This document shows positions 24,108 to 46,797 of a stretch of 64,000 nucleotides of DNA, piece by piece. The DNA is from an uncultured bacterium (GTDB lineage: Bacteria; Pseudomonadota; Alphaproteobacteria; MED-G09). The first letter of the stretch is position 1, and each line of letters begins with the position of its first letter. The stretch spans positions 8,205 through 72,204 of the forward strand of contig CAXFAF010000006.1 of the NCBI GenBank assembly GCA_964001285.1. Direction: 5' to 3'. A program made the position numbers and the translations under genes. The notes beneath the pieces were generated by a model. That model was not told where the DNA came from. It searched no databases and saw only the letters and a program-made list of their open reading frames with translations.

Positions 24108-25361
24108 TTATGTAGTATTTTTTGGGTTTTTTAAAAAAACTAAGGGTAAGAGACAAATTACTGATGTAATTAAATATATATTATTGACTGTAATATTTAA
24201 AACTCCATCAAAAATTCCAACCATTGTTTCTCCTCCAATTCTTGATATATGTCTAGCACTCATAAAAATAGCAAATAGAGAAGCTGCTGAGGCCGAAATT
24301 GATAATCTCATACATAATGAGAGCACTGCAGTCATTCCAAAAGAACTCAAGAATGAAAAAGCAAGTAATATACTTATTCCAAGAAATTCACTTTTTAGAA
24401 TGTTGGTATAAATTCCTATTATTAAGCACAATATCGCTAAACCAATTTGTGAAAATCTAATTATTGCTTGTGGATTAATTTTATCTGATAAATAGCCGCC
24501 AATCAAAGCAGCAATAACACCACCATATAAAGCTGCTGATCTAAGTTTGGTTAGATCATAAGATTCCCATTCAGCATAATTTATGTATAAAAAAGAAATG
24601 GAAGAAAAATGAATTCCTGAGGCAAGATTAGAAGTTAAGCAAAATAAAAGTAACAGGAAAATAAATTTATTTGAGATACTACTAACAATAGTGGATAAAA
24701 TTCCTGAAAATTTTAAATTTATAGTTTCATTTCCATCATAATGATAAGAGCCTAATGAAAAAAATTTATCAGATTGTTTTTCTTTGATAAAAAATAAAAG
24801 AATTCCTATTAAAGCAATTGCTATACCTAGATAAAACATTGCTTCGCCCAATCCATAGTTATTTATAATAATGGATGAAAATATTGCTGATATACTAACC
24901 CCTAAGGTTCTGAAGGCCCACATCAATCCATTAACAAAACCTCTCTCGTTTTCATTTAAAATGTCAATAGCCATTCCATCGGTTGCAACATCAAGTATTG
25001 AGGTTGCTAGGATTGTAGAAAATAGTGTTATACCAAGAATTAAAGGATCGATATTTTGACTGGTTAAGAATGCTGCAAAAATTAAAGTCTCACTCATCAT
25101 TAGAGTAGAAATGATTATCCATGGCCTTCTTTTGCCCATCAAGGAATTAGAAAAATAATCAACAAATGGACCTATTAAAAATTTTAAAGACCAAGGAATT
25201 GAGGCTATTGCAGTTATTATAGCAATATCTTTTATAGTAAACCCATTTCCAGCTAACCAATCCAATAAAGCAAAATATATAAGGCCTTGTGGAACGCCCT
25301 GAAGAAAGTATAGTAAACACAAAGAGGTTCGTTTGTATTTTTGACTATTTATAAAAAACAA
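24108..25361 (-). CDS. MFS transporter (AmpG / BT1 folate-biopterin-like architecture)
   Basis: 12-14 predicted TM segments. Conserved N-terminal pattern LYFLQGVPQGL...IPWSLKFLIGPFVDY...GKRRPW resembles AmpG/BT1-type MFS permeases. Family assignment is tentative. Confidence 0.7.
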   Translation of the reverse strand: MFFINSQKYKRTSLCLLYFLQGVPQGLIYFALLDWLAGNGFTIKDIAIITAIASIPWSLKFLIGPFVDYFSNSLMGKRRPWIIISTLMMSETLIFAAFLTSQNIDPLILGITLFSTILATSILDVATDGMAIDILNENERGFVNGLMWAFRTLGVSISAIFSSIIINNYGLGEAMFYLGIAIALIGILLFFIKEKQSDKFFSLGSYHYDGNETINLKFSGILSTIVSSISNKFIFLLLLFCLTSNLASGIHFSSISFLYINYAEWESYDLTKLRSAALYGGVIAALIGGYLSDKINPQAIIRFSQIGLAILCLIIGIYTNILKSEFLGISILLAFSFLSSFGMTAVLSLCMRLSISASAASLFAIFMSARHISRIGGETMVGIFDGVLNITVNNIYLITSVICLLPLVFLKNPKNTT

Positions 25362-25378
25362 GATTTACACCTATAATT

Positions 25379-26101
25379 TTAATTTTCTTGTTCTTCTTGA
25401 TTTTTTACTTTCTGAGTTATTTCTCTTTCAATTCCTAAAGCAAAATCTGAAACATAAGGATTAGTTAACCTTTCTTGACCAAAGGTTGATAAAGGTCCAT
25501 GCCCAGGAATAAATGTCATTTCATCTCCTAATGGCCATAATTCATTAACTATCGAATTTACTAATTGTTCATGATTACCTCTGGGCAAATCTGATCTTCC
25601 TATGGAACCTTGAAAGATAACATCTCCAACTACTGCTAATTGGGCTTTTTCATGAAAGAAGATAATGTGGCCAGGTGTATGCCCAGGACAATGTCTAACA
25701 CCTAATGTTTGATTGCCTATTGTTACTTCATCACCATTTTTTAGATATCTTGTTGTTTCAAAAGATTGGGCCCCCTTTAAACCAAATCTTTCTCCCTGCT
25801 CAGACAGGCTTTCCATTAGAAAAAGGTCTTCTTCATGAGGACCTTCTATAGGAACATTTAACATTTTAGAAAGTTCATTTGCCCCACCTGCATGGTCAAG
25901 ATGAGCATGAGTGATCAAAATTTTTTCAACTGTTATATTATTGTCTTGAACCATCTTAAGAATGTTATCTAAATCTCCACCAGGATCAAAAATAGCTCCT
26001 AATGATGTTTCAACGCACCATACAATTGAACAGTTTTGTTGAAAAGGAGTAACAGGAACAACAACTGCTCTAATTGGTTTTGATTGATTGTTTTCTTCCA
26101 T
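25379..26101 (-). CDS. MBL-fold hydrolase, glyoxalase II / YcbL(GloC)-like
   Basis: THAHLDHAGG (HxHxDH), CPGHTPGH, and downstream GDVIFQGSIGRSDLPRG ... IPGHGP match small hydroxyacylglutathione-hydrolase-like MBL proteins. Confidence 0.8.
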   Translation of the reverse strand: MEENNQSKPIRAVVVPVTPFQQNCSIVWCVETSLGAIFDPGGDLDNILKMVQDNNITVEKILITHAHLDHAGGANELSKMLNVPIEGPHEEDLFLMESLSEQGERFGLKGAQSFETTRYLKNGDEVTIGNQTLGVRHCPGHTPGHIIFFHEKAQLAVVGDVIFQGSIGRSDLPRGNHEQLVNSIVNELWPLGDEMTFIPGHGPLSTFGQERLTNPYVSDFALGIEREITQKVKNQEEQEN

Positions 26102-26104
26102 AAA

Positions 26105-26812
26105 TTAAGAGAAAATTTCCCTAAAAAAATTATCCATTGCCTCAAAAGATCTATCATTAGCGTCTTTGTTAAATGCCATACCGTCTTCAGGTGAGTCAGC
26201 TAATGGATTAGTAAATGCATGGCTTGTACCCCCATAAGCATGAATTTGCCAATCTGCTTTTGCTTTTGTGAGTTCATTAGCTAGCCCATTTACTGCATCG
26301 TGCGGAACCATAGGGTCATCATTGCCATGTAAAACTAAAACTTTAGATGTAATAGTGTTTCCATCCGTATTTCCAGGAGGCGTAAATAAACCATGGAAAG
26401 AAACAACTCCTCCAATATTAGAGCCTGTTCTTGCTAGGTCAAGAACGCATAAACCTCCAAAACAAAATCCTATAGCCCCAGACTTGGACTCATCTATTCC
26501 AACTTTTTCAATAGCTGTTTTATGTGCTAGATTTATTCTTCTTTGAAGAAGCTCTCTATCATCTAGGACTACTTGCATGAGTCCCATATTTTCTTCAGGA
26601 CTTGATCCAACTTTACCTTCTCCATACATATCTACAGCGAAACCAGAATATCCTAATTCATTCATCATCTGAGCTTTTTCTAGAGTAAAATCATCTCTTC
26701 CGGCATATGAGGGTACTACTAGAACCAGCGGGCTGCTATCAGGATTATCTGTTGGGAAAAGAACTCCCTCTAGTCGAACATCATTGTCAAAGTAATCTAC
26801 TTTTTCACTCAT
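26105..26812 (-). CDS. Dienelactone hydrolase family protein
   Basis: Alpha/beta hydrolase with a Cys nucleophile elbow GFCFGG, a His near the C-terminus and a conserved Asp. 235 aa. Confidence 0.8.
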   Translation of the reverse strand: MSEKVDYFDNDVRLEGVLFPTDNPDSSPLVLVVPSYAGRDDFTLEKAQMMNELGYSGFAVDMYGEGKVGSSPEENMGLMQVVLDDRELLQRRINLAHKTAIEKVGIDESKSGAIGFCFGGLCVLDLARTGSNIGGVVSFHGLFTPPGNTDGNTITSKVLVLHGNDDPMVPHDAVNGLANELTKAKADWQIHAYGGTSHAFTNPLADSPEDGMAFNKDANDRSFEAMDNFFREIFS

Positions 26813-26833
26813 AATTTATCTCCTAATTTGTTA

Positions 26834-27607
26834 CTATTCTGGCATAGCGCCTGAGGTGACAGACATTGCATTATCAACTCTTAATTGTGCGCCATTCATA
26901 AATTTTGATTCATCTGAGGCAAGATATAATGCCGCATAAGCGATATCCATTGGTTCACCAGTTTTACTTGCAGGTGCATCCTGATTAGGTGGATTGTCCC
27001 CAAATTTTGCATCCATTTTTTCAGGAACACTTGCAACCATTGGTGTGGCGATTCCTGAAGGATGAATTGAGTTACATCTCACACCATTCTTTTTTAAACC
27101 GCAATGAACTGCAACAGCTCTAGTGTAAGCCTCAATTGCGCCTTTAGCCGCACAATAGGCGGCAACATAAGATTCACCTTGAACAGAAGCTATTGAACAC
27201 ATATTGACAATTGATCCACCACCTGTTTCTGCCATAACTGGGATTGAATATTTGCATCCAAAGAAAGTGCTATCCATATGAACAGCCATAGTAAACCTAT
27301 ATTCTTCTGTTGTCTGATTTTCTGGATCGCCGACTTCAACTATTCCAGCATTATTAACAAGAACATCCAGTCTACCATGAAGTTTAACGGTTTCGGAAAT
27401 TACCTCTTTCCATCTTTCTTCATCGGTCACATCTTGTTGCATAAAAGTAGCACCAATTTCTTCAGCTAATTTTTTTCCTTCATCTTCGGCAACATCAGTT
27501 AAAACAACTTTAGCACCTTCACTAGCAAATAATTTAGCATCTGCTGCACCCAAACCCATAGCTGCACCAGTGATAATTGCTACTTTGTTTTCAAGTCTTC
27601 CTGCCAT
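26834..27607 (-). CDS. Short-chain dehydrogenase/reductase (candidate cis-dihydrodiol dehydrogenase)
   Basis: Coenzyme site TGAAMGLGAADA, catalytic YCAAKGA (YxxxK) and NNAG. Lies immediately downstream of a Rieske oxygenase. Confidence 0.85.
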   Translation of the reverse strand: MAGRLENKVAIITGAAMGLGAADAKLFASEGAKVVLTDVAEDEGKKLAEEIGATFMQQDVTDEERWKEVISETVKLHGRLDVLVNNAGIVEVGDPENQTTEEYRFTMAVHMDSTFFGCKYSIPVMAETGGGSIVNMCSIASVQGESYVAAYCAAKGAIEAYTRAVAVHCGLKKNGVRCNSIHPSGIATPMVASVPEKMDAKFGDNPPNQDAPASKTGEPMDIAYAALYLASDESKFMNGAQLRVDNAMSVTSGAMPE

Positions 27608-27625: not shown

Positions 27626-29014
27626 TTAAGTATTATTTTCGTTTAAATATTTATCTACCATTAGATGTAAATGTCTTGTTCTCGATTCTTGATAATTGCC
27701 TAAAGTTTGAGCACCCTTTGGACTAGCTTTAAAGCCCTTTGTTTGTGATAAAAGATTGTTTGTGTCTTGATCATATACAGCCCCTAAAAAACCAGTTCCT
27801 TCACATAAAGTATAACTATCATTTATATCCAAGTATTGAGGTTCCGGTGGTAGGGGATGATCTTCACCAGGAATTTTTGGTCGTAAAAATAAGAGATCAA
27901 ATATTGCATGATCTACTCCATCTGGTCTAAATCTATATACCATCGGTAATTGAAGCCCTGGAAAAAAGAAAGCATTAGGAAAAACAAAATATTCTATTGA
28001 ATCAATAGTTTCTGTAACGCTTAAGTGAGAAAAGTCAGATTTATATTTTTCACTCATTTCTTCTTGAACAATTCTTGCATAAACTTCTCTTGCAGTGCTT
28101 CCTTCGGGAACTTTTATTTCACCCGAATCATCATCGAGTCTTCTACCAAGAAGAATATCTAATATTCCTTGTTGGTCAGGTCGGTTATCAGTCACATGAG
28201 GGCTTGTATAGCCTATAGTATGAACAAAACGGGTGATATGATCACCAAAAATGTCATAATCTGCATTAGCATCACCTGCAGTCATAACGCCTTCAGAATG
28301 GGTTTCTAAAACATGATAAGCTTCTAGAAATGCTTCTGCAGAAGCCTTCCAGTTAGCTGGAAGCCTTTTAACTACATGTGTTTCTATATATCTATCTTCA
28401 AGATTCCAATTCTTAAAATGTTCAGGTAACACACCAAGATAATCATTTAAAGGTTTTGCATTTTGGTCAAAATTTACGAAAACAAAACCACCCCAAATAT
28501 CACATTTTAGCTCTGGCAAACTATATTCCTCTTTATTAACATGAGGAAAATCCCAATCGCACGGAAGAAATTCTAGTTTTCCAGAGAGTGACCATGTCCA
28601 GCCATGAAATGGGCATCTAAGTTCTTTGCATATTCCTGAAGTTCCTGAAGGTTTTAATTGCGTTCCCCTATGTAAACATGAATTATAATATGCCTTTATC
28701 TCATCTTTCTCAGATCTAACAATTATTGCTGAAAGATCACCTACATCATAAACATAATAGTCTCCAATTTCTGGAATATGATCAACATGGCAAGCCCACT
28801 GCCATACTCTTGACCACATATGGTCATTTTCTTTTTTTGCGAATTCTTCAGAGATATATCTTTCAAATGGTATGTCTGCATCGCTTATAAATTCATAAGA
28901 CTCTTCCAAAATAGGTGCTGGAGCCCCTGTGCAATCTCTACTTACCAATTCTTTGGTAGATGGATGATCAGGACATCTTGCTTCACCTGGTTTTAGATTT
29001 TTAAGTTCGCTCAT
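27626..29014 (-). CDS. Rieske [2Fe-2S] non-heme-iron oxygenase, alpha subunit (paralog 1)
   Basis: Rieske CLHRGTQL...CPFHGW and mononuclear-iron motif EAYHVLETH (Hx4H). 462 aa. First gene of a minus-strand operon. Confidence 0.88.
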   Translation of the reverse strand: MSELKNLKPGEARCPDHPSTKELVSRDCTGAPAPILEESYEFISDADIPFERYISEEFAKKENDHMWSRVWQWACHVDHIPEIGDYYVYDVGDLSAIIVRSEKDEIKAYYNSCLHRGTQLKPSGTSGICKELRCPFHGWTWSLSGKLEFLPCDWDFPHVNKEEYSLPELKCDIWGGFVFVNFDQNAKPLNDYLGVLPEHFKNWNLEDRYIETHVVKRLPANWKASAEAFLEAYHVLETHSEGVMTAGDANADYDIFGDHITRFVHTIGYTSPHVTDNRPDQQGILDILLGRRLDDDSGEIKVPEGSTAREVYARIVQEEMSEKYKSDFSHLSVTETIDSIEYFVFPNAFFFPGLQLPMVYRFRPDGVDHAIFDLLFLRPKIPGEDHPLPPEPQYLDINDSYTLCEGTGFLGAVYDQDTNNLLSQTKGFKASPKGAQTLGNYQESRTRHLHLMVDKYLNENNT

Positions 29015-29193
29015 GGCTTAAAACCCCCAAATTTATAATGACGATATAACAATAATCTCATATACGAAATACTAAATTTATAAAAATATCAATTTCTTAA
29101 TAAATTATTGACTTTTAGGGGTATTTTTAAAAAATATAATAATATTCTTCAAATTTTGATGTTTATATGTAGACTAGGTCCTATGTTTAGTGG

Positions 29194-29198
29194 GGAGG
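29194..29198 (+). promoter_or_regulatory. Shine-Dalgarno (GGAGG) for the TonB-dependent receptor
   Basis: GGAGG lies 5-6 nt upstream of the ATG at 29204, and a signal peptide begins at that ATG. Confidence 0.6.
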
Positions 29199-29203
29199 TT
29201 TTT

Positions 29204-31402
29204 ATGAAAAAACTAACTATATTTTTTGTTGCTTGTATTTTAGCTATTACAGGCAGTGTTATGGCTGATGAGGGTGAGAACCTACAAAGTTCAGCTAGCA
29301 ATTCTTCAAGTTCTGCAACTAGTCAATCCAATGCTGGTTTGGAAGAGATAGTAGTTACTGCTCGTAAGAGGGAAGAAAGTCTTTTAGATATTCCTGAATC
29401 AGTAGTAGCAATATCAGGATTAAGTATTGATCGTCAAAATATTAAAGGTCTTGATAAAATTGGGTTAGCCATTCCAAACCTTAATCTCGCTATGCGTACA
29501 GATGGATATCCAAATGCTTCCATTAGGGGTATTGGTGCTTTTGGTTTAACACAAGGTGTAGGTTTTTATATTGATGATGTTCAATTATTTAGTGATGCTT
29601 CATCAAGATTTGGAGACTTAGAAAGAATAGAGGTTATAAAGGGTCCACAAGGAACCTTATATGGAGGTAGTAATATTGGTGGAGCCATTAAGTATGTTAG
29701 TAAACGTCCAGATTCAAACGAAACCTCTGGAAGATTAAAACTTCTTGGTGGTGAGCAAGGCGTAATAGATGTTGAAGCTTCTGTTAATATGCCCATTGGT
29801 GATAATGGTTGGGCAATTAGAGTATTTGGGTTTACTAGAGAAGATGATGGATTTATGTATAATCCTAATTCTGATAATGTTGACAATCAAGACCCTGATG
29901 TAGGCGCTTATGACGAAAGTGGAGGGCGTTTATCAATTGCTGGTCAACTTTCGGATAATCTATCACTCTACGCTTCACTTCGCTACAATGAGTATAACGG
30001 CCCAGTAAATAATTGGGCGAGGGAATTAGGTAGTGCACCTAATTTCACTTATCCAAAGACTTTAGATGCGGGTTTAAACCCAACTCATGAAAGAGAAACT
30101 TTTGGAGCACATTTAGAGTTAGTTTTTGAAAGAGAAGGTTATGATGTTACTTCTGTAACCTCCTATACAGATACTGAAAGCACTCGGATTACAGATGTTG
30201 ATTTAACTCAATTCTGGTTTATGAACACATATAGACCCGAAGAATTTGAAATTATAACTCAGGAGATACGATTTACATCAACAACAGAAAGTAATTTTCA
30301 ATGGATAGCAGGTGTTTATGCTTCAAAATATACAAATAATATGGATTCATATTTACACTTCGGTCCGGGGATTATTCTACCTGATAGTGATTTTATTCTA
30401 CCATTTGAATTACGTGACGAAGAAAATACCCATTTAGCAGCTTTTGCTAATATTTCGTATGAAGAAGGTGATTGGAAGTTAGATTTAGGTTTAAGAATAG
30501 ATAGTTGGGAAGAGGATGAAGATAACCTCGATATAGAAACAAATGGAGCACTTCATGCTGGTGTAATTAATGATACTGAAGTTTTACCTCGTATTTCTGT
30601 GACAAGAAATCTGGAGAATGACTCCATGGCTTATTTAACAATATCCAAGGGCTTTGAGCCAGGAGGATTAAATGGATCTACTCCAATTTTAGGTCCTGAT
30701 GGTTCACCAACTCTTTTAGAATTTCAACCTGAAGAAGCCCTTCAATATGAAATTGGCTGGAAAGGGAGTTTTGCAGAAGGTAGAGGTACAGCATCTGTAG
30801 CCGCCTTCTTTATTGATTATAAGAAAAGAGCTTATCAAGTCTTAACCCCTAATCCAAATGGACCAGGTTTGATAGAGGGCATAACGAATGTAGGTAACTC
30901 TGAACAACATGGTGTTGAGTTTGAATTAGCTTATCAATTTAACGAAAGCCATTCGATAAGTCTTGCTGGAGGTATGATTGATGCTGAGTGGGATAATAAT
31001 ACAGTAGCCAATGATACTGATTTAAGCGGTCTGACGCCAGCGAATGTAATCGAGAATAGTTTTTCAATTAACTATAGTTACGATAAACTTCTTGCTAATG
31101 ATATGAATCTCATTGCAGATATTCAATTAAGTCATCAAGGAGAAGGTAAGAGTATGCCGCCTTGGGATTCTATAAATAATCCAGATTACACCGTAATAAA
31201 CATTCAGGCAGGAATAATAAGGGGTCCTTGGGAGTTTATGTTGAATTTGGATAATGCTACTGATGAAGAGTATTATACAGATTTAGAAAATTTCCCTAAT
31301 TTTGGATTTGGCAGCCCTGATATCGAAACGCATCCTACAATTGTTATTGGTACTTATGGTCATCCAAGAATATTATCTGCTAGTTTGACATATAATTTTT
31401 AA
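29204..31402 (+). CDS. TonB-dependent outer-membrane receptor
   Basis: Signal peptide MKKLTIFFVACILAITGSVMA, plug region EEIVVTARKRE..., a long beta-barrel and a C-terminal aromatic residue (...LTYNF). Start chosen at the ATG at 29204 with GGAGG 6 nt upstream; the ORF-track start at 29108 is rejected. Confidence 0.88.
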   Translation: MKKLTIFFVACILAITGSVMADEGENLQSSASNSSSSATSQSNAGLEEIVVTARKREESLLDIPESVVAISGLSIDRQNIKGLDKIGLAIPNLNLAMRTDGYPNASIRGIGAFGLTQGVGFYIDDVQLFSDASSRFGDLERIEVIKGPQGTLYGGSNIGGAIKYVSKRPDSNETSGRLKLLGGEQGVIDVEASVNMPIGDNGWAIRVFGFTREDDGFMYNPNSDNVDNQDPDVGAYDESGGRLSIAGQLSDNLSLYASLRYNEYNGPVNNWARELGSAPNFTYPKTLDAGLNPTHERETFGAHLELVFEREGYDVTSVTSYTDTESTRITDVDLTQFWFMNTYRPEEFEIITQEIRFTSTTESNFQWIAGVYASKYTNNMDSYLHFGPGIILPDSDFILPFELRDEENTHLAAFANISYEEGDWKLDLGLRIDSWEEDEDNLDIETNGALHAGVINDTEVLPRISVTRNLENDSMAYLTISKGFEPGGLNGSTPILGPDGSPTLLEFQPEEALQYEIGWKGSFAEGRGTASVAAFFIDYKKRAYQVLTPNPNGPGLIEGITNVGNSEQHGVEFELAYQFNESHSISLAGGMIDAEWDNNTVANDTDLSGLTPANVIENSFSINYSYDKLLANDMNLIADIQLSHQGEGKSMPPWDSINNPDYTVINIQAGIIRGPWEFMLNLDNATDEEYYTDLENFPNFGFGSPDIETHPTIVIGTYGHPRILSASLTYNF

Positions 31403-31423
31403 TAGCAAAAAATATTAAATAAA

Positions 31424-34144: not shown

Positions 34145-34161
34145 TAAGAGCCTAGCAAATT

Positions 34162-35559: not shown

Positions 35560-35560
35560 A

Positions 35561-38780: not shown

Positions 38781-40118
38781 CTATTCAAAGTAGCTTTCAA
38801 TCATTTCGTGAAATCTTCTTATTCGTTTTTCTTGTCCTGCAAAATATGCCCTGTCAAATCCTCTAGACCTGAGACCATGTTGTTGAAGAATAAATACTGC
38901 TGAATCTTGATCTATAGTTTGGCCAAGACTTTTTTCTCCGAGATCAAAGACTTCATGTTCAGCATATTCTCCTCTTTCTGAAATTCCTACAGTTGTTCTA
39001 ATTGGAGAAGTTTCATGTTCAGGGTTACTTGCATACCACCAATTGTCGAAGACACATTTCTCTGGGTCCGTTGGATGAGGTTTTGCTCTTAAAAAATGGA
39101 ATCCATCTGCCCACAATGAAACTGCAAAATTGGGAAAGAGGGTATAGTGAAAGGCGTCTGTTAATTGTTCATCTCTCAAATTTTTATAATGGGTATATCC
39201 TTTTTTTGGACCTATTTCTCTTTTAGCGATTTGTATGGCTACCCTTGTCTCTTGCCCTTTACCAGAGAAATCATCAGGATTAATTTCCCATTCCTTCATA
39301 ACTGAATTTAGAGGATCTTCTATTTGTCCATCTTCTTGCATAGATCCATACCCGGCTCGCATGATCATTCTGTTATGACCCTCTTCTGATAGGTCAAATT
39401 GTGTATTTTTATAGCTAGTATCAACGCCACTTGGCATTCTTCTTTTTGTTACAGCTCGCTCAGGGGCATGTACTGTTGGGAGATGATAAGATTCATTAAA
39501 ATTATCAAGAATTATTTTCCAATTACAAGGTACATTTACGGTTTGCGCAACATATCTTTTCCATTTATGAATTTCATAAGCTTCCCAATCTTTCCATACT
39601 GGACCTAACCATTCTTTTAATGAAGGCGCTTTTTCATGCATGTTAATCCAAATAAAACCTGCAAATGTTTCTGTTTTAACTTCTTTTAATTTAAGTTTTC
39701 CGCATGGATTTCCTTCAGGAAAATCTTCAGAGTCTTGTGCTTCAATAAGTTCGCCGTCTATTCTCCACTGCCAACCATGATAAGGACATTTGAAAGTTTC
39801 TGTTGATCCAAGATCGTTAAATGTCAATCTTGCTCCTCTGTGTTGGCAAACATTATAAAAAGTTTTTATTTTATTATTATCTTGGCGTATCATTAGGAAG
39901 CTTTCTCTTCCAAATTCTTCCATTTGGTAATCACCAGGTTCAGGAATTTGATCCTCTCTTCCTAAAAGTAACCAAACCTTTGGCCACATATGGGCCCATT
40001 CTTTTTCCATAAATTCTTTAGAATAATAGCGTGTTCCATCGACATCCAATCCTTTAAGATCAGGATTATCCCAAGAAGGACTTTCTTTTTTATACCAATC
40101 TAAATCAATTACATTCAT
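38781..40118 (-). CDS. Rieske non-heme-iron oxygenase alpha subunit (paralog 3)
   Basis: Rieske CQHRGARL...CPYHGW and Fe site DNFNESYHLPTVH. 445 aa. Confidence 0.88.
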   Translation of the reverse strand: MNVIDLDWYKKESPSWDNPDLKGLDVDGTRYYSKEFMEKEWAHMWPKVWLLLGREDQIPEPGDYQMEEFGRESFLMIRQDNNKIKTFYNVCQHRGARLTFNDLGSTETFKCPYHGWQWRIDGELIEAQDSEDFPEGNPCGKLKLKEVKTETFAGFIWINMHEKAPSLKEWLGPVWKDWEAYEIHKWKRYVAQTVNVPCNWKIILDNFNESYHLPTVHAPERAVTKRRMPSGVDTSYKNTQFDLSEEGHNRMIMRAGYGSMQEDGQIEDPLNSVMKEWEINPDDFSGKGQETRVAIQIAKREIGPKKGYTHYKNLRDEQLTDAFHYTLFPNFAVSLWADGFHFLRAKPHPTDPEKCVFDNWWYASNPEHETSPIRTTVGISERGEYAEHEVFDLGEKSLGQTIDQDSAVFILQQHGLRSRGFDRAYFAGQEKRIRRFHEMIESYFE

Positions 40119-40159: not shown

Positions 40160-40960
40160 TTAAAAAGTAGTATTTCCAATTCCGCCATCTATAACAAGAC
40201 TTTGTCCTATAACATAAGAAGCTTGTTGACTACAAAACATTGCAACAAAAGAACCTAAATCATCAGAAGATCCAAATTTTTTTGCTGGAATCTTCCAATT
40301 TTCAACAAAATTAGCAATTTCTTCATCATAAGATGTTCCATTTTCTTCTGCTAATTTATTATATCTTTCCTTAATGCTCGCAGTATGATGCATTCCGGGC
40401 AATATATTGTTTATCACAACATTATGTTTTGCAACTTTTTTTGAGACTGCTACTGAATAATTTACTAATGCCGCCCTTGGAGGGCCTGATAAAATTCTTA
40501 CTTCAGTTGGTGTTTTAGCTGCACCAGTACCGATATTAACTATACGTCCCCATTTTCTTTCTACCATACCAGGAATTATTGCTTTCATAAATTCTACAGG
40601 ACTAAGAAGTGCAACATCTAAAGTCTGCTTCCATTCATCAGTACTAACCTTTTCGTAGCTGTAAGTAAAAGGTGGAGGGGTGCATGTTCCAACTAAAATA
40701 TCAGGATTAGGACAAGCAGATATAATTTTTTCTCTTCCTTCATCTGTACTGTGATCAGCAACTATAGGCTCTACTTTTACATTAGTAGCTTTTTTAATTT
40801 CTTCACAGGTTTGTAATAATCTATCTTCTCCACGAGCAGAAATAAATAGATCAACACCTTCTTTAGCGAGAGCAAAAGCACTGCCTTTTCCCATTCCTGC
40901 GCTACCGCCATTGATAATTGCTTTTCTACCTTTAATACCTAAATCCATAATTTCCCCCAT
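40160..40960 (-). CDS. Short-chain dehydrogenase/reductase family protein
   Basis: Gly-rich coenzyme loop NGGSAGMGKGSA and Rossmann topology. First gene of the minus-strand operon 40960 to 36083. The catalytic tetrad spacing is atypical. Confidence 0.75.
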   Translation of the reverse strand: MGEIMDLGIKGRKAIINGGSAGMGKGSAFALAKEGVDLFISARGEDRLLQTCEEIKKATNVKVEPIVADHSTDEGREKIISACPNPDILVGTCTPPPFTYSYEKVSTDEWKQTLDVALLSPVEFMKAIIPGMVERKWGRIVNIGTGAAKTPTEVRILSGPPRAALVNYSVAVSKKVAKHNVVINNILPGMHHTASIKERYNKLAEENGTSYDEEIANFVENWKIPAKKFGSSDDLGSFVAMFCSQQASYVIGQSLVIDGGIGNTTF

Positions 40961-41077: not shown

Positions 41078-42712
41078 ATGCAAAAACAATACGATGTTAT
41101 AATACTTGGCGCAGGTGCAAGCGGTATGGCTGCCGCTTTGGCAGTTCATGAAAATGGTTCATCGGTAGGGCTTTTTGAGAAACAGAATCTTGTTGGAGGT
41201 ACAACAGGAGTTTCTGGAGGAATTATTTGGGCCCCTATGAATAGTTATATGAAAGAAAAGGGTATAGCCGATGATAGACAAAAGGCTATAGACTACTTCA
41301 TGTCTTTATCTAACAATGATATAGACCCAAATCTACTTGAATCTTTTATAGATAACTGTTCAACAGCAATAGATTTTATAGAAGAAAAAACCGACGCAAG
41401 TTTTTATATATTAGATGGTTATCCTGATTATTATCTTGATAGACCTGGTGCTTTAGAAGGCGGAGGAAGAGCCTTAGATAATAATCTATTTGATTTTAGT
41501 AAACTTGGAAATTGGGCTGAGAAAGTTAGAGGTAACGGAAAACCAATTCCTATGACTCTTGGGGAAACACCTCTAGGTGGAGGAACAGGTATAGTAGAGG
41601 ATTCTATCATGGGAGAAAGAATTTCAAATGACTCACGAGGAATGGGTCAAGCATTAGTTGGGGCTCTTCTCAAAGGTTGTCTCGACAGAGGCATTGAACC
41701 CCAGCTTGGGATAAATACAAAAAAATTAATTAAAGAAGGAAATAGAATCATTGGTATTGAGATTGATAATAATGGTGAGGCTTTTGAAATCTACGCAAAT
41801 AGAGGTGTCATTATTGCTACTGGAGGCTTCGAATGGAACGAGAATTTAGTAAATAATTTCTTAAGAGGTCCCCTAAATGCTCCTGCGTCACCTCCAGGTA
41901 ATGATGGTGATGGATTAAAATTAACTCAAGAAGTAGGCGCTTCTTTAGGCAATATGACAAGCGCCTGGTGGTCGCCTGTTCTATCAATACCAGGTGATCA
42001 ATGGCCAGAAGGGGGACAAAGGTCAGCTCCAATTTTAATTGAAAGAACTTTACCTCATACAATTATGGTGAATCGATCAGGTAATAGATTTTGTAATGAA
42101 GCAACTAATTATTCTGCAATGGCCGGTGCTTTTCATTTTTTTGACCCCAATGAATATGGGTATCCAAATTTACCAGCATGGTTGATTTTTGATTCAAATT
42201 ATAGAGAAAAATATCCTTTTTCTAATATTATGCCAGGATCTAATGATCCCGAATGGTTTATTAGTTCTGAAAATATAAAGGAATTATCTGAGAAACTTGA
42301 AATAGATTCCAAATCTTTGAAAAATACAATCAAAGTTTTTAACAGTTATGTTGATAACGGTGAAGATCTTGAGTTTGGAAGAGGTAAAAGTGATTACGAT
42401 TCTTTTTATGGAGATAGAACCCAATCAGGTGTCTACACGACCTTAGGAAAAATAGATAAACCGCCCTTTTATGCGGTTAAATTAGATATTGGGGCTTTGG
42501 GAACTAATGGTGGAGCAAGAACTGATAAATTTGGTCGAGTAATTTCTGCCTCAGGAGAAATTATTGACGGTTTGTACACTGTGGGGAATGCTATGGCAGG
42601 TAGTACGGGTTCGGTTTATGCGGGAGCAGGTGGCACCTTGGGTCCAGCATTGACTTATGGTTATCTTGCTGGTTGTCATGCTGCAGGAAATAATTTTGCT
42701 GAAAAGGAGTAA
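41078..42712 (+). CDS. FAD-dependent oxidoreductase, 3-ketosteroid-delta1-dehydrogenase (KstD)-like / fumarate-reductase flavoprotein family
   Basis: N-terminal FAD motif DVIILGAGASGMAAAL, and C-terminal ...GLYTVGNAMAGSTGSVYAGAGGTLGPALTYGYLAG typical of KstD-like enzymes. 544 aa. Confidence 0.82.
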   Translation: MQKQYDVIILGAGASGMAAALAVHENGSSVGLFEKQNLVGGTTGVSGGIIWAPMNSYMKEKGIADDRQKAIDYFMSLSNNDIDPNLLESFIDNCSTAIDFIEEKTDASFYILDGYPDYYLDRPGALEGGGRALDNNLFDFSKLGNWAEKVRGNGKPIPMTLGETPLGGGTGIVEDSIMGERISNDSRGMGQALVGALLKGCLDRGIEPQLGINTKKLIKEGNRIIGIEIDNNGEAFEIYANRGVIIATGGFEWNENLVNNFLRGPLNAPASPPGNDGDGLKLTQEVGASLGNMTSAWWSPVLSIPGDQWPEGGQRSAPILIERTLPHTIMVNRSGNRFCNEATNYSAMAGAFHFFDPNEYGYPNLPAWLIFDSNYREKYPFSNIMPGSNDPEWFISSENIKELSEKLEIDSKSLKNTIKVFNSYVDNGEDLEFGRGKSDYDSFYGDRTQSGVYTTLGKIDKPPFYAVKLDIGALGTNGGARTDKFGRVISASGEIIDGLYTVGNAMAGSTGSVYAGAGGTLGPALTYGYLAGCHAAGNNFAEKE

Positions 42713-42714
42713 TT

Positions 42715-43623
42715 ATGGAAAAAGTTTTGGTTTATGGTGCAAGTGGCGATCAAGGAGTTCCTCTTGTTAATGCGTTAATTAAAAAGGGCTATAAAATTAG
42801 AGCTGCATCAAGATATCCAGAAAAATACAAAAGTGAAATTCAGGGAGATGTAGAGAGTGTAAAGGCTGATCTATTTGATGTTAATACACTTAAAGAAGCT
42901 TGTAGAGATGTTGATTGTATAGCTATGAATTTACCTTTTGTTTTTGATAGAGCGATTGCGAAACAATGGGGAGAAAATATAAATAATGCTGGAAAAGAAA
43001 TGGGTGTTAAGAAAATAGTTTTTAATACAAGTTGTTATGTTGCCCCTAATGATAATGGATTAGAAGCCCATGATGGAAGAAGAGAAATAGAGAAATCTAT
43101 GGAAGAAAGTGGTATGGATTTTGCTGTAATTAGATCGGTGGTTTTTATGGATAATCTATCAAGATTTTGGGCGAAACCTTCGATAGTTAATAGTAATATT
43201 TTTGCTTATCCTTGCAGCGAAACCCTTAAAATTTCTTGGATTTGTCTTGAAGATGTCGCAGCCTTTATGGTCGCAGCCTTATCAAAGAAAGATGTTAAAG
43301 CTGATAAAATTACTGTTGGCGGACCTGAAATATTATTGGGTTCTGAAGTTGCTGAGAAATTTACGAAAGCACTTGGTAGAGAAATAAATTTTCAGAGTTT
43401 AGAACCAAATAGTTTTGCAAGACAAATGAGCAAGTTAGTCACTGGGTCTGAAGAATATGAAAAACCATCCATCTATGGTGGGATGGCAGCTTTTTATAGA
43501 TGGTATAATGAACAAGACCCTTCACCCTTAGCAATTGAAATGGATGAGTTGTATGATAAATTTTCTATAACTCCAACTTATTTTGAGGACTGGATTAAAA
43601 AGCATGATTGGGATAATATCTAA
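42715..43623 (+). CDS. NmrA-like NAD(P)-binding protein (atypical SDR)
   Basis: N-terminal Rossmann VLVYGASGDQGVPLVNALIKKGYKIRAASR. 302 aa, with a 3-nt gap to the upstream gene. Confidence 0.78.
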   Translation: MEKVLVYGASGDQGVPLVNALIKKGYKIRAASRYPEKYKSEIQGDVESVKADLFDVNTLKEACRDVDCIAMNLPFVFDRAIAKQWGENINNAGKEMGVKKIVFNTSCYVAPNDNGLEAHDGRREIEKSMEESGMDFAVIRSVVFMDNLSRFWAKPSIVNSNIFAYPCSETLKISWICLEDVAAFMVAALSKKDVKADKITVGGPEILLGSEVAEKFTKALGREINFQSLEPNSFARQMSKLVTGSEEYEKPSIYGGMAAFYRWYNEQDPSPLAIEMDELYDKFSITPTYFEDWIKKHDWDNI

Positions 43624-43646: not shown

Positions 43647-44891
43647 ATGTCTGACAGTAATATTGAAAAATACAGTTTTTTAGATCCGCTTATTAATAGC
43701 GACCCTTTTGAGTTTTACGAAATGCTTCATAAAGAGCAACCTGTATATAAAATTCCTGAGGTCGGAATTTATATGCTTACAAAATATGATGATATTAGGA
43801 TGGCTCTTAAAGATTTTGAAACATTTTCAAACGATGTCAGTGTAGCGACCCGAGGTGAATTTTCATCGTTACATCAAAATATTCTTACTGATGGTGGAGG
43901 CTGGGAGCATGTTCAGACTCTTCAAAGAACTGATCCTCCTGTTCATAGAAGGTATAGAAAACTTGTCGATAGGGTATTTACTAAGAAAAGAGTAGATGAA
44001 TTATTACCTCATCTCGACGAAGTTGTTAACGAGCTAATTGATAATTTTATTGAAAGTGGAACTTGTGACTTCAATGATGAGTTTGCTATGCGTATGCCTG
44101 GTATCATAATAGCCGAGCAACTTGGTTTATCGAGAGACAATGTTGCTACTTTTAAAAAATGGGCTGACTCAATGTTAGGTGCAAGTAGGGCGCCCATCGC
44201 GACTGAAGAGGAAGTAACTGCAAATGCAAAGATTGAGCTTGAAGCCCAACTTTTTTTGGCTGATGTATTTGAAGATAGAAGAAAAAATCCAAAAGAAGAT
44301 TTGATGTCGGCAATGGTTCACGCTCACGGTGATGATGAAGAGCCTTTATCTATGCATGAACTTCAAAATTTAATGCATCAATTAATTACTGGTGGATATG
44401 AAACAACTCAAAGCGCTATTAATCACGGAATGTGGGCTCTTATAAGATTTCCAGATATTGTAGAAAAACTCTATGAGGATGACTCACTTCTAAAACCTTT
44501 TATTGAGGAGGTTTTAAGATGGGAAAGTCCAGTTCAATTCCTTTTAAGAAGGACGCAAAAAGATGTAGAAGTATCAGGGACAACAATACCTAAGGACTCA
44601 ATGGTCATGATGGGATATGGACCGGCTAATAGAGACGAAAGCAAATTTTCATGCCCTCATCAGTTTCAATTAGATAGAGAAGGTGTTGGTGCGCATGTAG
44701 CTTTTGGTTCAGGCGCGCATCATTGTCCAGGTGCTCTATTAGGCAGACAAGAAATGATTCGTTCTTTCAAATTTCTTATAAAAAGAATGAAAAATATAAA
44801 ACTAGCTAAACCCCTTCAAGAGCCTGTTCACAATTTCAGTTTGTTTTTTATGCCTATGAAGGAATTTTTTATAACTTTTGATAAGCGTTAA
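43647..44891 (+). CDS. Cytochrome P450
   Basis: Heme-thiolate loop FGSGAHHCPGALLG, I-helix ITGGYETT, an ExxR motif and PERF-like regions. 414 aa. Confidence 0.92.
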   Translation: MSDSNIEKYSFLDPLINSDPFEFYEMLHKEQPVYKIPEVGIYMLTKYDDIRMALKDFETFSNDVSVATRGEFSSLHQNILTDGGGWEHVQTLQRTDPPVHRRYRKLVDRVFTKKRVDELLPHLDEVVNELIDNFIESGTCDFNDEFAMRMPGIIIAEQLGLSRDNVATFKKWADSMLGASRAPIATEEEVTANAKIELEAQLFLADVFEDRRKNPKEDLMSAMVHAHGDDEEPLSMHELQNLMHQLITGGYETTQSAINHGMWALIRFPDIVEKLYEDDSLLKPFIEEVLRWESPVQFLLRRTQKDVEVSGTTIPKDSMVMMGYGPANRDESKFSCPHQFQLDREGVGAHVAFGSGAHHCPGALLGRQEMIRSFKFLIKRMKNIKLAKPLQEPVHNFSLFFMPMKEFFITFDKR

Positions 44892-44900
44892 CTAATTTTC

Positions 44901-45434
44901 CTATCTTTGGTATGCGGGATCTTGACGACTTCTACTTGCAGAAGGTCCCGGTGCTTCTAGTTGGCCTTTTTCATTAGCAGGTTCAAATCTGATCCAATCA
45001 TGAACACCCTGTCGTTTAGCTATTTTCCATTCACCATTTCTTCTTTCGAAGCGATCAATATATCTTCCACTAACGAAAACATCCTCATCAATGCTTGTGT
45101 CATGCTCAGCTAAAAAACCCATATCAGATTCTTTACCTTTGGCGATTCTATGATATGCGGTCCAATAAGCTTCAGACCATGCAATATCACCATCTACTTC
45201 AATAAGAAGATTTCCAACAAGATGTTGGGTAAATTCCATTTCAGCTAATATGTCGAAGGCAAAGTTACAGAAATCTGATGATGGACCCTCATATTCTCCA
45301 TGATGATGAATTGAGTCTTCATGGAATACGGATTCTAAAAGTTCCCGATCCATTCTGTCTATTGCTCTGCAGTATCTATATACCACATCTGCTATTTCAA
45401 TCTTATCTGCAGCTATTTCCAATTTTTTATTCAT
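44901..45434 (-). CDS. SnoaL_4 / NTF2-like domain protein (paralog B); positioned like an oxygenase beta subunit
   Basis: 177 aa, with IADVVYRYCRAIDRMDRELLESVFHEDS. Begins 16 nt downstream of Rieske alpha paralog 4 on the same strand. Confidence 0.75.
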   Translation of the reverse strand: MNKKLEIAADKIEIADVVYRYCRAIDRMDRELLESVFHEDSIHHHGEYEGPSSDFCNFAFDILAEMEFTQHLVGNLLIEVDGDIAWSEAYWTAYHRIAKGKESDMGFLAEHDTSIDEDVFVSGRYIDRFERRNGEWKIAKRQGVHDWIRFEPANEKGQLEAPGPSASRSRQDPAYQR

Positions 45435-45450
45435 TATATACCTTCAAAAC

Positions 45451-46797
45451 TTATTCATTTTCTTCGTTAAAAAGGTATCGATCAATATTTTCATGAAAAA
45501 ATCTTATTCTATTTTCTTGAGCCGGCATATAATCGCCTATGTAACCTCTTGAGCTCAAACCTTTTTGTTGACTGGTCCATATTGCAACATCTTCAGAAAT
45601 TCCATCTCCTACATCTACTTCAGAGTGATGCCCCTTTAGATGAGGAATTTTTGTATTTATAGCTGTTTTCTTTTTCAGCATATGTGAATAATATTCATCA
45701 ACTCCTTTTGGAAATAAAGTTAGATACCAATAGTCAAAATAACATTTTGTTGGATCAGTAGGGTGGGGTGTTCCTCTAAGCCATTGCATTCCATCTGGTT
45801 TTACACTGAATGACATATTTGGAAAAATTGTATAATGGTGATGATCTGTTAATTGGGTATCTGTAAACTTACTAAAGTCATAACCTTTTTCTTTATCAAG
45901 TTTCCTTTTTTGCTTTTGCAAATCGTTTCTTATTTCAAGAAGCCTACCTTTATAATCATTTGCATCCATATCCCAATACTCAATTGCCGGAGAAATAGCC
46001 TCTAAAACTTTTTTTTCATCATCATAAACACTTTTACTAGGAATAAATCCAGGCATAAGCATTCTTGCATGCATACTTTCATACATATCGAATTGACAAG
46101 AGTAATATTTTTCATCTGAGAAATATTTTAAGGCAGGATGAACATAAGGAGTATGATATGATTCATTGAAATTATCCTGTACACATTTCCAGTTCCAATC
46201 ACCTTCAACAGTAACCCAATGTGTTCTTATCATTTCCGATATGGGATAGTTTTCTAGTTGATCCATTACTGGATGTAAATATTCTTTTAAAGTTTTTGCG
46301 TTAGGGTCTAGATTAAAAAAAATAAATCCTTCCCAAATCTCTGATTTAATTTCAATTAAATTTCTTTTACCGCAAGGAGAGCCTTGAGGAAAATCCTCTT
46401 CATCAGGAACCCATTCAAGGTTTCCGTCCAGGCCAAATTTCCAGGCGTGATAAGCGCATGAAAAACTATCTAAGTTGCCTTCATCAACCTGAACTAATTT
46501 ATTTCCTCTATGTTGGCATACATTATAGAAGCATCTAATTTTAGAATCTTCACCTTTTGCACATAAAATTGACTCACGACCAAAATCATATGTAAAGAAG
46601 TCACCAGGATTTTCGAGTTGCTGTTCTAAACCAGCAACTTGCCAAACTTTTGTAAAAAGTTTTTCCCACTCTAAATCCATAAATTCTTTCGATGTATACC
46701 TTTCTCCGAGAATAGGTTTATTGCCTAACTTTGGTTCAGGTGCTTTGACTGTATCACCACCAAAGAAAGAATCAGATTTTGATAAAATTTTATCCAT
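45451..46797 (-). CDS. Rieske non-heme-iron oxygenase alpha subunit (paralog 4)
   Basis: Rieske CQHRGNKL...CAYHAW (variant second box) and Fe site DNFNESYHTPYVH. 448 aa. Confidence 0.86.
   Translation of the reverse strand: MDKILSKSDSFFGGDTVKAPEPKLGNKPILGERYTSKEFMDLEWEKLFTKVWQVAGLEQQLENPGDFFTYDFGRESILCAKGEDSKIRCFYNVCQHRGNKLVQVDEGNLDSFSCAYHAWKFGLDGNLEWVPDEEDFPQGSPCGKRNLIEIKSEIWEGFIFFNLDPNAKTLKEYLHPVMDQLENYPISEMIRTHWVTVEGDWNWKCVQDNFNESYHTPYVHPALKYFSDEKYYSCQFDMYESMHARMLMPGFIPSKSVYDDEKKVLEAISPAIEYWDMDANDYKGRLLEIRNDLQKQKRKLDKEKGYDFSKFTDTQLTDHHHYTIFPNMSFSVKPDGMQWLRGTPHPTDPTKCYFDYWYLTLFPKGVDEYYSHMLKKKTAINTKIPHLKGHHSEVDVGDGISEDVAIWTSQQKGLSSRGYIGDYMPAQENRIRFFHENIDRYLFNEENE

Follow-up and report, generated by a model that had tools for sequence, protein, structure and literature searches.

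Introduction

Between the rplU-rpmA-obg operon on one side and the genes for a 298-aa membrane cytochrome c, KdsB and PheA on the other, an uncultured marine alphaproteobacterium (GTDB lineage MED-G09) carries a 22.7-kb block of 22 tightly packed genes, separated by gaps of 0-144 bp, for oxygenases, dehydrogenases, hydrolases and uptake systems. Such a locus raises two questions, namely whether the block is a lasting part of the chromosome or cargo found in some strains only, and which chemistry the encoded enzymes could perform together. The block covers positions 24108-46797 of the window, i.e. the whole stretch of 64,000 nucleotides analysed here (assembly GCA_964001285.1, contig CAXFAF010000006.1). 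An earlier note, made from the letters of the window, had taken it for an accessory catabolic island. The reading favoured here, with a probability of roughly 0.6, is that of a vertically inherited, clade-wide catabolic supercluster of an AT-rich, small-genome marine alphaproteobacterium, composed of six modules and a TonB-dependent receptor.

Conservation, composition and selection

A flexible or horizontally acquired island would have been inserted between two core operons and would be present in some strains only. Within the species, the sample consisted of the ten longest non-redundant contigs (L011-L020), originating from ten different ocean metagenome samples, several of them Tara Oceans; the exact L27 protein of the window was found in 165 blocks of the assembly collection. 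Over positions 13221-33490, these contigs are 99.77-99.89% identical to the window, the gene order is identical in 10/10 and no structural variant was found among them over the flank and the left half of the island. Nucleotide diversity (pi) among the ten contigs is about 0.002 over these 20 kb; the left half of the island has 0.0028 and the flank 0.0014. Such clonality and so wide a distribution are unusual for a marine bacterium with a small genome.

Beyond the species, the block stands at the same site in XB_MAG275 (a species representative; L001 and L023), with about 90% nucleotide identity, as well as in a Tara contig (L007), a ZHAN22 scaffold, L024/L025, L027 and L032. At least six further lineages have it at this site, the version of L026 being rearranged and that of L028 divergent; the ZHAN22 lineage is represented by L021 and L031, both from one 99-kb contig, and by L022. 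The left frame rplU-rpmA-obg is syntenic in all relatives and the right frame in L001, L007, L031 and L032, and none of the relatives sampled has rplU joined directly to the cytochrome c gene. The presence/absence pattern that an alignment of relatives might have revealed was thus not found, the block being at the same site in all lineages sampled. Genomes of the AAA536-G10 type (L003, L005, L008 and L009; about 45% amino-acid identity) keep the right frame, with unrelated genes beyond it and without the island genes, which can be counted in favour of an insertion; being very distant, they are uninformative on island absence.

Regarding composition, the GC content at third codon positions (GC3) is 0.212 in the island vs. 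0.200 in the flanks, and the anomaly for which the earlier note had suggested looking is not there. The difference in overall GC content (0.355 vs. 0.325) arises at first codon positions (GC1), i.e. from the amino-acid composition, and the composition of the island is native to the genome. Marks of mobility are missing as well: no tRNA or tmRNA gene or other Rfam feature was found in the window and no integrase in the island (Pfam), and the search for border repeats gave only short, imperfect and chance-like ones.

Selection was assessed from nonsynonymous (dN) and synonymous (dS) divergence, estimated on orthologous pairs following Nei-Gojobori, island and flank dN being compared by the Mann-Whitney test. 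Against the ZHAN22 lineage, median dS is 1.28 in the island vs. 1.48 in the flank, which is near saturation, and median dN is 0.066 vs. 0.136 (p=0.0007). The same trend appears against L024 and L032 pooled (median dS 1.50 vs. 1.60; median dN 0.092 vs. 0.183; p=0.0008) and against XB_MAG275 (median dS 0.33 vs. 0.42; median dN 0.020 vs. 0.036; p=0.046). At similar dS, island dN is about half that of the flanking housekeeping genes, and purifying selection acts more strongly on the island than on obg, proB, proA, kdsB and the cytochrome c gene. Since most island genes share their near-saturated dS with the flanks, they are as old as the flanks, and a lower dN at similar dS speaks for a function and not for a block in decay or of recent import. 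Because the same site and flanks are kept in relatives and the composition matches that of the flanks, the reading as an accessory or recently acquired island fails; the block is not strain-specific.

Gene content and organisation

The 22 open reading frames (ORFs) of the island could all be assigned to Pfam families, with scores far above the gathering cut-offs. The families, coordinates and flanks named in the earlier note were all confirmed in this way. Its inventory of about twenty genes was right, but the count rises to 22, a lactonase-like hydrolase of the metallo-beta-lactamase (MBL) fold and an NmrA-like protein having remained unnamed, and the five transcription units then proposed correspond to seven co-directional runs. 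None of the island products reaches an NCBIfam equivalog cut-off.

From the left, the first gene encodes a permease of the major facilitator superfamily (MFS; AmpG/BT1/Acatn-like, 417 aa; 24108-25361, minus strand; MFS_1 and BT1 domains). Module A, on the minus strand, holds a GloB-like MBL hydrolase (25379-26101), a dienelactone-hydrolase-family esterase (DLH; 26105-26812), a short-chain dehydrogenase/reductase (SDR; 26834-27607) and a 462-aa oxygenase with Rieske and Ring_hydroxyl_A domains (27626-29014), transcribed in the order Rieske, SDR, DLH, GloB-like MBL with intergenic gaps of 3-21 bp. The TonB-dependent outer-membrane receptor (29108-31402, plus strand; Plug and beta-barrel domains) separates it from module B, which runs on the minus strand and pairs a 292-aa MBL-fold lactonase-like hydrolase (31449-32327; Lactamase_B) with, upstream of it, a 99-aa protein carrying an antibiotic biosynthesis monooxygenase (ABM) domain (32330-32629). 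Between the convergent receptor and lactonase genes lies a bidirectional terminator-like hairpin with a 13-bp stem (31421-31449).

On the plus strand, module C contains a 456-aa Rieske oxygenase (32774-34144), a 465-aa GPH/MFS_2 cation symporter (34162-35559) and a 173-aa SnoaL_4 protein of the NTF2-like type (35561-36082). Module D, on the minus strand, extends from an Amidohydro_1 protein (carboxypeptidase/ochratoxinase-like, 446 aa; 36083-37423) through an Amidohydro_2 protein (ACMSD/LigW-type, 326 aa; 37435-38415), an ABM protein of 116 aa (38421-38771) and a 445-aa Rieske oxygenase (38781-40118) to a 266-aa SDR (40160-40960), and its transcription order is SDR, Rieske, ABM, Amidohydro_2, Amidohydro_1. 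Module E (plus strand) encodes a 544-aa FAD desaturase of the KstD family (FAD_binding_2; 41078-42712), the 302-aa NmrA-like NAD(P)-binding protein (42715-43623) and a class-I type cytochrome P450 of 414 aa (43647-44891). Finally, module F (minus strand) comprises a 177-aa SnoaL_4 NTF2-like protein (44901-45434) and, upstream of it, a 448-aa Rieske oxygenase (45451-46797) whose gene adjoins that of the cytochrome c.

As the earlier note had stated, regulator, ferredoxin, reductase and ring-cleavage dioxygenase domains are absent from the 22 island products (Pfam); the scan of 30 flanking window ORFs brought up none either. Its description of the set as oxidative catabolism with uptake, rather than biosynthesis, also holds. 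It is true that the ABM, SnoaL, NmrA, P450, SDR and Rieske families are characteristic of polyketide tailoring, some with telling Pfam names (antibiotic biosynthesis monooxygenase, SnoaL polyketide cyclase-like), that SimC7 is a relative of the NmrA-like protein and that the P450 matches cyclodipeptide-associated and macrolide P450s, all of which would suit the tailoring set of a secondary-metabolite cluster. Yet no polyketide synthase, nonribosomal peptide synthetase, terpene synthase, cyclodipeptide synthase or other scaffold enzyme is encoded in the island or the 30 flanking ORFs scanned, the transport systems serve uptake (TonB receptor, GPH symporter) and not export, and degradative hydrolases and a decarboxylase are part of the block; a biosynthetic role is therefore highly improbable.

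Modular variation between lineages

While the block is fixed within the species over the part compared, its content is modular between lineages, so that the site has been plastic over longer evolutionary times. All relatives whose left side was sampled have module A; in L026 it is inverted as a single unit, the GloB-like MBL gene moving with the DLH, SDR and Rieske genes while the MFS gene stays beside rplU. The latter gene adjoins rplU in all relatives, even where the neighbouring module A is inverted, and is the least conserved of the island (64-79% amino-acid identity). As regards the left boundary, considered uncertain in the earlier note because the MFS and GloC-like genes could be core, the MBL gene travels with module A and the MFS gene remains with rplU. 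Of note, in one ZHAN22 locus (L021, 8233-9910), the GloB-like MBL is uncalled and the MFS gene is truncated, with 343 aa, but MBL-like sequence is detected there by tblastn (91% identity); the sister contig L022 is intact there, and L021 possibly represents a pseudogene, a frameshift or an assembly error.

Further differences concern whole genes. In L026, the GPH gene is duplicated and both the TonB receptor and the lactonase are missing. L032 harbours a compact version of about 16 kb, without TonB receptor, lactonase, GPH symporter, 445-aa Rieske protein and 266-aa SDR, and with a duplicated SDR in module A. Of the whole locus, the TonB receptor changes most: it is 88% identical in L021 but 53% in L024, where the neighbour genes are 88-90% identical, and L026 and L032 lack it. 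An enoyl-CoA hydratase (ECH) gene is found between the SDR and Rieske genes of module D in L031 (ZHAN22 lineage) and in L028. The KstD-NmrA-P450 triad is kept in all lineages sampled on the right side, including the divergent L028. This abundant lineage ("Hyphomicrobiales/Rhodobiaceae bacterium"; longest contig 1.41 Mb) keeps the triad, a Rieske-SnoaL pair, an SDR-ECH pair and the GPH gene in the same chromosomal neighbourhood. In addition, it has genes for two different receptors as well as for a beta-helix and a GFA protein, and its kdsB-pheA-amtB block is inverted relative to the island. Since modules are gained or lost independently between lineages, they probably serve several substrates or branches and not one obligatory linear pathway.

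Two modules depart from the common age of the block. Against the ZHAN22 lineage, module C (32774-36082 vs. 899-4213 of L031) has dS of 0.59-0.77, compared with 1.0-1.8, about 1.4, for the other genes, which suggests that it was exchanged more recently than the rest. Module F (44901-46797 vs. 10968-12864 of L001) has dS of 1.5-2.5 and 82% nucleotide identity against XB_MAG275, where the background is 0.2-0.5 and about 92%, and its protein sequences are closer to those of the more distant ZHAN22 lineage (96%) than to those of XB_MAG275 (91%); this fits allelic replacement by recombination in the XB_MAG275 comparison. Signs of recombination appear limited to these two modules.

The content that differs among distant lineages at the same site (L026, L028, L032), the replaced or lost TonB receptor, the apparent recombinational exchange of modules C and F, and the existence of fixed-position islands in streamlined marine alphaproteobacteria (PMC10734472) are further arguments for an acquired island. 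With GC3 as in the flanks, no tRNA, integrase or repeat at the borders, the left half present in every same-species contig, the block in every related lineage sampled and most genes near-saturated in dS with a lower dN, this explanation remains quite unlikely; what survives of the accessory island is that content is modular and varies between lineages. The vertically inherited supercluster is thus the reading followed below.

The four Rieske proteins

The four Rieske paralogs are distant from one another, with 26-28% identity to the 462-aa protein and 28-39% to the 448-aa protein (two alignments). In all four, the CxH..CxxH ligands of the Rieske cluster and the E-x-Y-H-x4-H..D iron site are intact: the residues that correspond to C113, H115, C134, H137, H234, H239 and D417 of the 462-aa protein do not vary, and the same columns are invariant in 34 family members, except for the first Rieske histidine, which is nearly so. 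The motif F-x-E-x-Y-H is likewise invariant in these 34 members. In HMMER alignments, N-W-K-x5-F-x-E-x-Y-H-x4-H aligns without gap to Y203, E205, H208 and H213 of CntA, E231 of the 462-aa protein falling on E205, whereas phthalate and naphthalene dioxygenases require a one-residue gap at the motif and have G-D instead of the glutamate. E205 of CntA acts as bridging glutamate, and together with an aromatic residue at position 203 it separates the group V quaternary-ammonium oxygenases from the ring dioxygenases, clade Va having Tyr or Phe (Phe in OxyBAC) and clade Vb Asn at this position (PMC7948474). In the window proteins, Phe occupies this position without exception (F229 and F210 of the 462-aa and 448-aa proteins, respectively); as Phe is a common hydrophobic residue, it may be a weak pointer to a cationic substrate at best.

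The AlphaFold2 model of the 448-aa protein (pLDDT 89.5) was compared to solved structures with Foldseek. The 13 best PDB folds are all CntA, with a TM-score (TM) of 0.80 and a root-mean-square deviation (rmsd) of 5-6 Å, followed by TM1040_3219 and Stc2, while naphthalene and biphenyl dioxygenases reach a TM of 0.60-0.66 with an rmsd mostly of 6-10 Å. Judging from the motif in the four paralogs and the modelled fold of this one, the Rieske proteins are probably alpha-only, CntA/Stc2-like (group V-like) monooxygenases. The alpha-only character of these oxygenases, stated in the earlier note, is upheld; an assignment to aromatic ring dioxygenases, given the CntA-type motif and folds, is not supported. 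More broadly, the family is a large, uncharacterised clade (545 clusters at 50% identity, E<=1e-30) with members in marine Actinomycetota (Acidimicrobiia), Alpha- and Gammaproteobacteria.

These features bear directly on the possibility of a pathway for methoxylated or lignin-like aromatics, in which the Rieske proteins would be ring dioxygenases or O-demethylases, an SDR a cis-diol dehydrogenase, the Amidohydro_2 protein a decarboxylase of the ACMSD/LigW type and the DLH active on a dienelactone. The Ring_hydroxyl_A domain, the presence of HcaE, BenA and AntA among the matches, the kinship of Amidohydro_2 with hydroxybenzoate-type decarboxylases and the DLH-family protein itself are in line with such a route, and the NmrA family includes benzylic ether reductases. 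However, the island lacks intradiol or extradiol dioxygenases, cycloisomerases and beta subunits, the proteins have the bridging Glu in a gapless CntA-type motif and not G-D, their nearest folds are CntA and Stc2, and the SDRs match other enzymes better than cis-diol dehydrogenases. A classical alpha3beta3 ring dioxygenase is not supported, with Glu in place of Asp, a motif shorter by one residue, and neither a beta subunit nor a ring-cleavage enzyme in the island. The aromatic pathway is consequently rather improbable, and the remark of the earlier note that this is no textbook aromatic route is borne out.

The closeness to group V enzymes (CntA, Stc2, GbcA/BmoA, OxyBAC) suggests another option, i.e. 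catabolism of quaternary-ammonium or N-methylated osmolytes (betaines, carnitine, choline analogues), with C-N-cleaving or N-demethylating Rieske proteins and the other enzymes processing the carbon skeletons. Both sets share the Rieske CxH/CxxH ligands, the 2-His-1-carboxylate iron site, the gapless N-W-K-x5-[Y/F]-x-E-x-x-H-x4-H motif with its bridging Glu, an aromatic residue at the pi-cation position Y203 and the independence from a beta subunit gene, and CntA and Stc2 are the closest solved folds. GbcA is the best NCBIfam match for all four Rieske proteins, and the Amidohydro_1 protein is related to amino-acid-releasing carboxypeptidases. On the other hand, the GbcA match is confined to the N-terminal half and scores 107-153 bits, far below the cut-off of 670. 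Compared with CntA, the Rieske proteins have 55-90 additional residues and C-terminal halves unrelated in sequence; the Cys-x-x-Cys pair is missing and no CntB/GbcB-type reductase gene is adjacent, which keeps their placement in group V proper tentative. The island has no genes to handle formaldehyde, tetrahydrofolate or methylamine, and the KstD, P450, SnoaL and lactonase genes among which the Rieske genes sit play no part in the betaine and carnitine pathways known to date. As an account of the whole locus, osmolyte catabolism is doubtful.

NTF2-like proteins, module E and hydrolytic enzymes

The two SnoaL_4 paralog groups are 38% identical, with about 20 polar residues invariant in both, among them D26, H38, H71, Y90, H95 and D118. 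Almost no gap is needed to align them to LinA, a dehydrochlorinase; their similarity to BaiE, the bile-acid 7-alpha-dehydratase, is weaker. LinA has an Asp25/His73 dyad, and the positional match to Asp26/His71 is suggestive. By these similarities, the SnoaL_4 proteins may be eliminases or dehydratases acting on six-membered alicyclic rings. The order Rieske-NTF2 had raised the suspicion of divergent dioxygenase beta subunits, which is rejected in view of the conserved polar set with its Asp and His residues and of the LinA/BaiE similarity, and is further at odds with the CntA-like alpha fold and with SnoaL_4 not being a beta-subunit family. Besides, two of the four Rieske genes lack an NTF2 neighbour, and a 59%-identical Rieske homolog in a 5.3-Mb genome is an orphan located beside a LuxR gene and a TonB receptor, without any NTF2 neighbour.

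For the KstD-like flavoprotein, the top NCBIfam model is ChcC1 (4-oxocyclohexanecarboxylate 2-dehydrogenase), with 420 bits over the full length for a cut-off of 1000, slightly above the KstD models (403-412 bits; cut-offs 788-789), and AcmB (7p18) is matched in the PDB at 7e-94. The best PDB matches of the P450 are a CYP125 ancestor, CYP150, EryF and CYP124. Among solved structures, the NmrA-like protein is closest to an NmrA-fold chain deposited as 'Monooxygenase' (5f5l/5f5n), presumably KstA11, which acts in polyketide tailoring, and to SimC7, a ketoreductase of polyketides. Outside the lineages sampled, a KstD-NmrA pair stands with receptor and SnoaL genes in Parasphingorhabdus (L030), and a SAR86 genome has a KstD-like gene 62% identical, in a KstD-SDR pair beside a TonB receptor and a sulfatase. 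ChcB1 is among the better NCBIfam matches of the 257-aa SDR, below the cut-off of 400.

The hydrolytic enzymes are related to several activities. The best NCBIfam matches of the module B MBL are the lactonases YtnP, AidB and AiiA, all far below cut-off. In the PDB, the Amidohydro_2 protein best matches ACMSD and the gamma-resorcylate, 2,3-DHBA and 5-carboxyvanillate decarboxylases, and the Amidohydro_1 protein Xaa-Pro dipeptidase, the Arg carboxypeptidase Cc2672 and ochratoxinase.

By analogy, the KstD-NmrA-P450 triad resembles alicyclic-ring desaturation chemistry. In the aerobic aromatisation of cyclohexanecarboxylate, P450 hydroxylation is followed by dehydrogenation and KstD-type desaturation (PMC9795900), and the same P450/SDR/KstD logic would also be that of steroid ring-A chemistry. 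Like the chc cluster of Sinomonas cyclohexanicum (P450 ChcA, SDR ChcB, desaturases ChcC1/ChcC2), the window combines P450, SDR and KstD-family desaturase in one locus, and Chc models are found among the top matches of both flavoprotein and SDR. Unlike it, the window stays below the cut-offs, has a single desaturase and neither ferredoxin nor reductase, its P450 is no established ChcA ortholog, and no 4-hydroxybenzoate/protocatechuate pathway lies nearby.

Partial transformation of steroids, sterols or cyclic terpenoids has to be weighed at this point: an SDR would act on the 3-hydroxyl, the KstD-like protein on ring A, CYP125-like and KshA-like enzymes would hydroxylate, and NTF2 proteins would serve as isomerases or dehydratases. 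The KstD-family flavoprotein with its AcmB and KstD matches, the CYP125/CYP124-like P450, the SDRs and the NTF2-fold proteins with their weak match to BaiE are shared with the 9,10-seco steroid genes (KstD, KshAB, CYP125, HsaA-D), the SAR86 homolog next to a sulfatase and receptor points the same way, and steroid-like catabolism has been proposed for the streamlined SAR86 (PMC11582366). The similarities are at superfamily level only. All scores are below curated cut-offs, with ChcC1, specific for a monocyclic substrate, ahead of KstD, and the Rieske proteins are CntA-like and have no KshA-type C-terminal domain. Neither KshA/KshB nor HsaA-D is found in the island or the other window ORFs scanned, and FadD3 and a side-chain beta-oxidation set are missing from the island. 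The genome of a sister lineage, about 1.4 Mb, would moreover leave little room for a 9,10-seco pathway of about 80 genes. On balance, such a partial transformation is rather unlikely.

Proposed function

With the gene families, metal-binding motifs, conservation, selection, modular variation and fold of one Rieske paralog as a basis, the following order of reactions, class of substrates and sharing of electron donors can be proposed for the supercluster. Scarce dissolved organics would be taken up by the TonB-dependent receptor, the GPH symporter and the MFS permease. The four alpha-only (alpha3), CntA/Stc2-like Rieske monooxygenases and the P450 would hydroxylate or dealkylate these substrates, with electrons supplied by shared ferredoxin/reductase partners presumably encoded elsewhere. 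The SDRs would then oxidise the new hydroxyls to ketones, the KstD-family flavoprotein desaturate beside the ketone and the LinA/BaiE-like NTF2 proteins remove water from hydroxylated rings. Ester, lactone and amide hydrolases (DLH, the two MBLs and Amidohydro_1), together with the ACMSD-type decarboxylase, would open and trim the products. In a streamlined cell, expression may be constitutive, which would fit the absence of a regulator. Most likely, the modules handle several related substrates rather than forming one linear pathway, and the most probable class of substrates would be polar alicyclic compounds (cyclohexane-ring, terpenoid or sterol-derived), possibly N-alkylated or cationic.

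A variant of this proposal gives more weight to the group V affinity: the Rieske paralogs would dealkylate cationic algal metabolites with alicyclic or hydrophobic parts, or cleave their C-N (or C-S) bonds, and, with the dehydratases and the KstD-P450 enzymes, would constitute an unrecognised route of turnover of dissolved organic nitrogen and carbon (DON/DOC). The probability of this variant is low.

Several points weigh against the supercluster as proposed. Regarding its fixation, only long contigs were inspected, so assembly bias could hide strain variants without the block, the right half was sampled in fewer relatives than the left, and the within-species comparison concerns the left half. 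Regarding its chemistry, no curated family cut-off is reached, so that all enzyme specificities are extrapolated; the island encodes a single desaturase of the KstD type, against two in the Chc pathway; and the pathway is not closed, as no electron-transfer partner, ring-cleavage enzyme or downstream central-pathway gene is found in the island or the scanned window ORFs. As for the Rieske proteins, the Cys pair of some group V enzymes is absent (the equivalents of C206 and C209 being A/Q/S/S and V/V/L/T), the Foldseek E-values are close (1e-25 for CntA vs. 1e-23 for classical dioxygenases) and the sequence similarity to every solved Rieske structure ends after the iron-binding histidines.

Known systems and significance

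The locus works like known oxygenase-based catabolic clusters and cannot be assigned to any of the classical ring dioxygenase, 9,10-seco, chc and CntA/GbcA systems. Two other comparisons are with marine bacterioplankton. SAR86 (Magnimaribacterales) is also a small-genome surface-ocean oligotroph with TonB receptors and enzymes for steroid-like, polycyclic and heterocyclic compounds (PMC11582366), but it belongs to the Gamma- and not the Alphaproteobacteria and has another gene neighbourhood, whereas the genes considered here are concentrated in one 22.7-kb block. The fixed-position islands of HIMB59, e.g. its phosphate islands (PMC10734472), similarly have variable content at an equivalent site between core genes and exchange of modules; in the window, by contrast, variation is between species and genera and not among the ten same-species contigs, and the locus is fixed and under strong purifying selection. 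The HIMB59/AEGEAN-169 papers examined name no Rieske, TonB or P450 genes, and no link in sequence between that group and the window was found; kinship with OCS116 is likewise unsupported. Relatives of the window are labelled Pseudomonadota, Hyphomicrobiales or Rhodobiaceae bacterium at NCBI.

A literature search for this combination of genes in bacterioplankton gave nothing usable. The locus is no new kind of genetic system; SAR86 has already been credited with similar oxidative capacities (PMC11582366), and with the fixed-position islands of HIMB59 (PMC10734472) the general idea has precedents. What is new is the particular assembly, i.e. four uncharacterised CntA-like Rieske paralogs, LinA/BaiE-like NTF2 enzymes and a conserved KstD-NmrA-P450 triad, fixed in a near-clonal global population. 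Should the proposal be correct, a small-genome oligotroph (in the nearest lineage for which a long assembly exists, a contig measures about 1.4 Mb) would devote about 22.7 kb to unregulated oxygenase chemistry, and a constraint above that of neighbouring housekeeping genes would point to a quantitatively important class of dissolved organic substrates. The locus also provides a defined set of enzymes for study, namely the four CntA-like Rieske proteins, the P450 and the KstD-like desaturase.

Flanking regions and the rest of the window

On the left, the frame of rplU (L21), rpmA (L27) and obg occupies 22146-24015 on the minus strand, with proB-proA beyond. The L21 protein (rplU, 23494-24015) has a C-terminal extension of about 70 residues past the Pfam domain, and related lineages differ in the total length of the protein (162-179 aa). 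In the 92-bp gap upstream of rplU, a sigma-70-like promoter (TTGACA-16 nt-TATAGT; 24082-24055) agrees with 11/12 consensus positions, and this near-consensus site suggests that rplU is transcribed independently of the cluster; in the promoter scan, sites were no more numerous than in shuffled sequence. On the right (46868-49415), the gene for the 298-aa membrane cytochrome c (minus strand) precedes kdsB and pheA, which encodes prephenate dehydratase (both plus strand), with AmtB beyond; both frames were identified by Pfam.

The 30 other window ORFs scanned are housekeeping or non-redox genes, plus a variable segment. They include sdhAB, mdh, sucCD, lpd, a Xer-like recombinase gene, tal, priA, the ATP synthase operon (identified through the gene tables of colinear loci), dnaX, recR, def, fmt, truA, dapE and dapD. 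At 3126-7581, mdh, sucC and sucD are followed directly by lpd, with no sucA/sucB (2-oxoglutarate dehydrogenase E1/E2) between them. The recombinase (7585-8889), a 434-aa tyrosine recombinase of the phage-integrase family with a TTG start, lies between lpd and the transaldolase gene, whose ORF it overlaps by 38 bp. It is longer than typical XerC/XerD and, about 15 kb from the cluster, has no association with it.

The variable segment (49546-53026) is the second of the window and contains amtB and two further genes, one for a NosD-like beta-helix protein of 413 aa and one whose 341-aa product matches no Pfam family. The window shares this segment with the XB_MAG275 and ZHAN22 lineages; in L032 it is missing between pheA and a NUDIX gene, and the distant AAA536-G10-type genomes lack it too. 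L028 encodes orthologs of the beta-helix protein and of the 341-aa protein (64-68% identical) inside the catabolic block, after the P450, and amtB is still found beside pheA.

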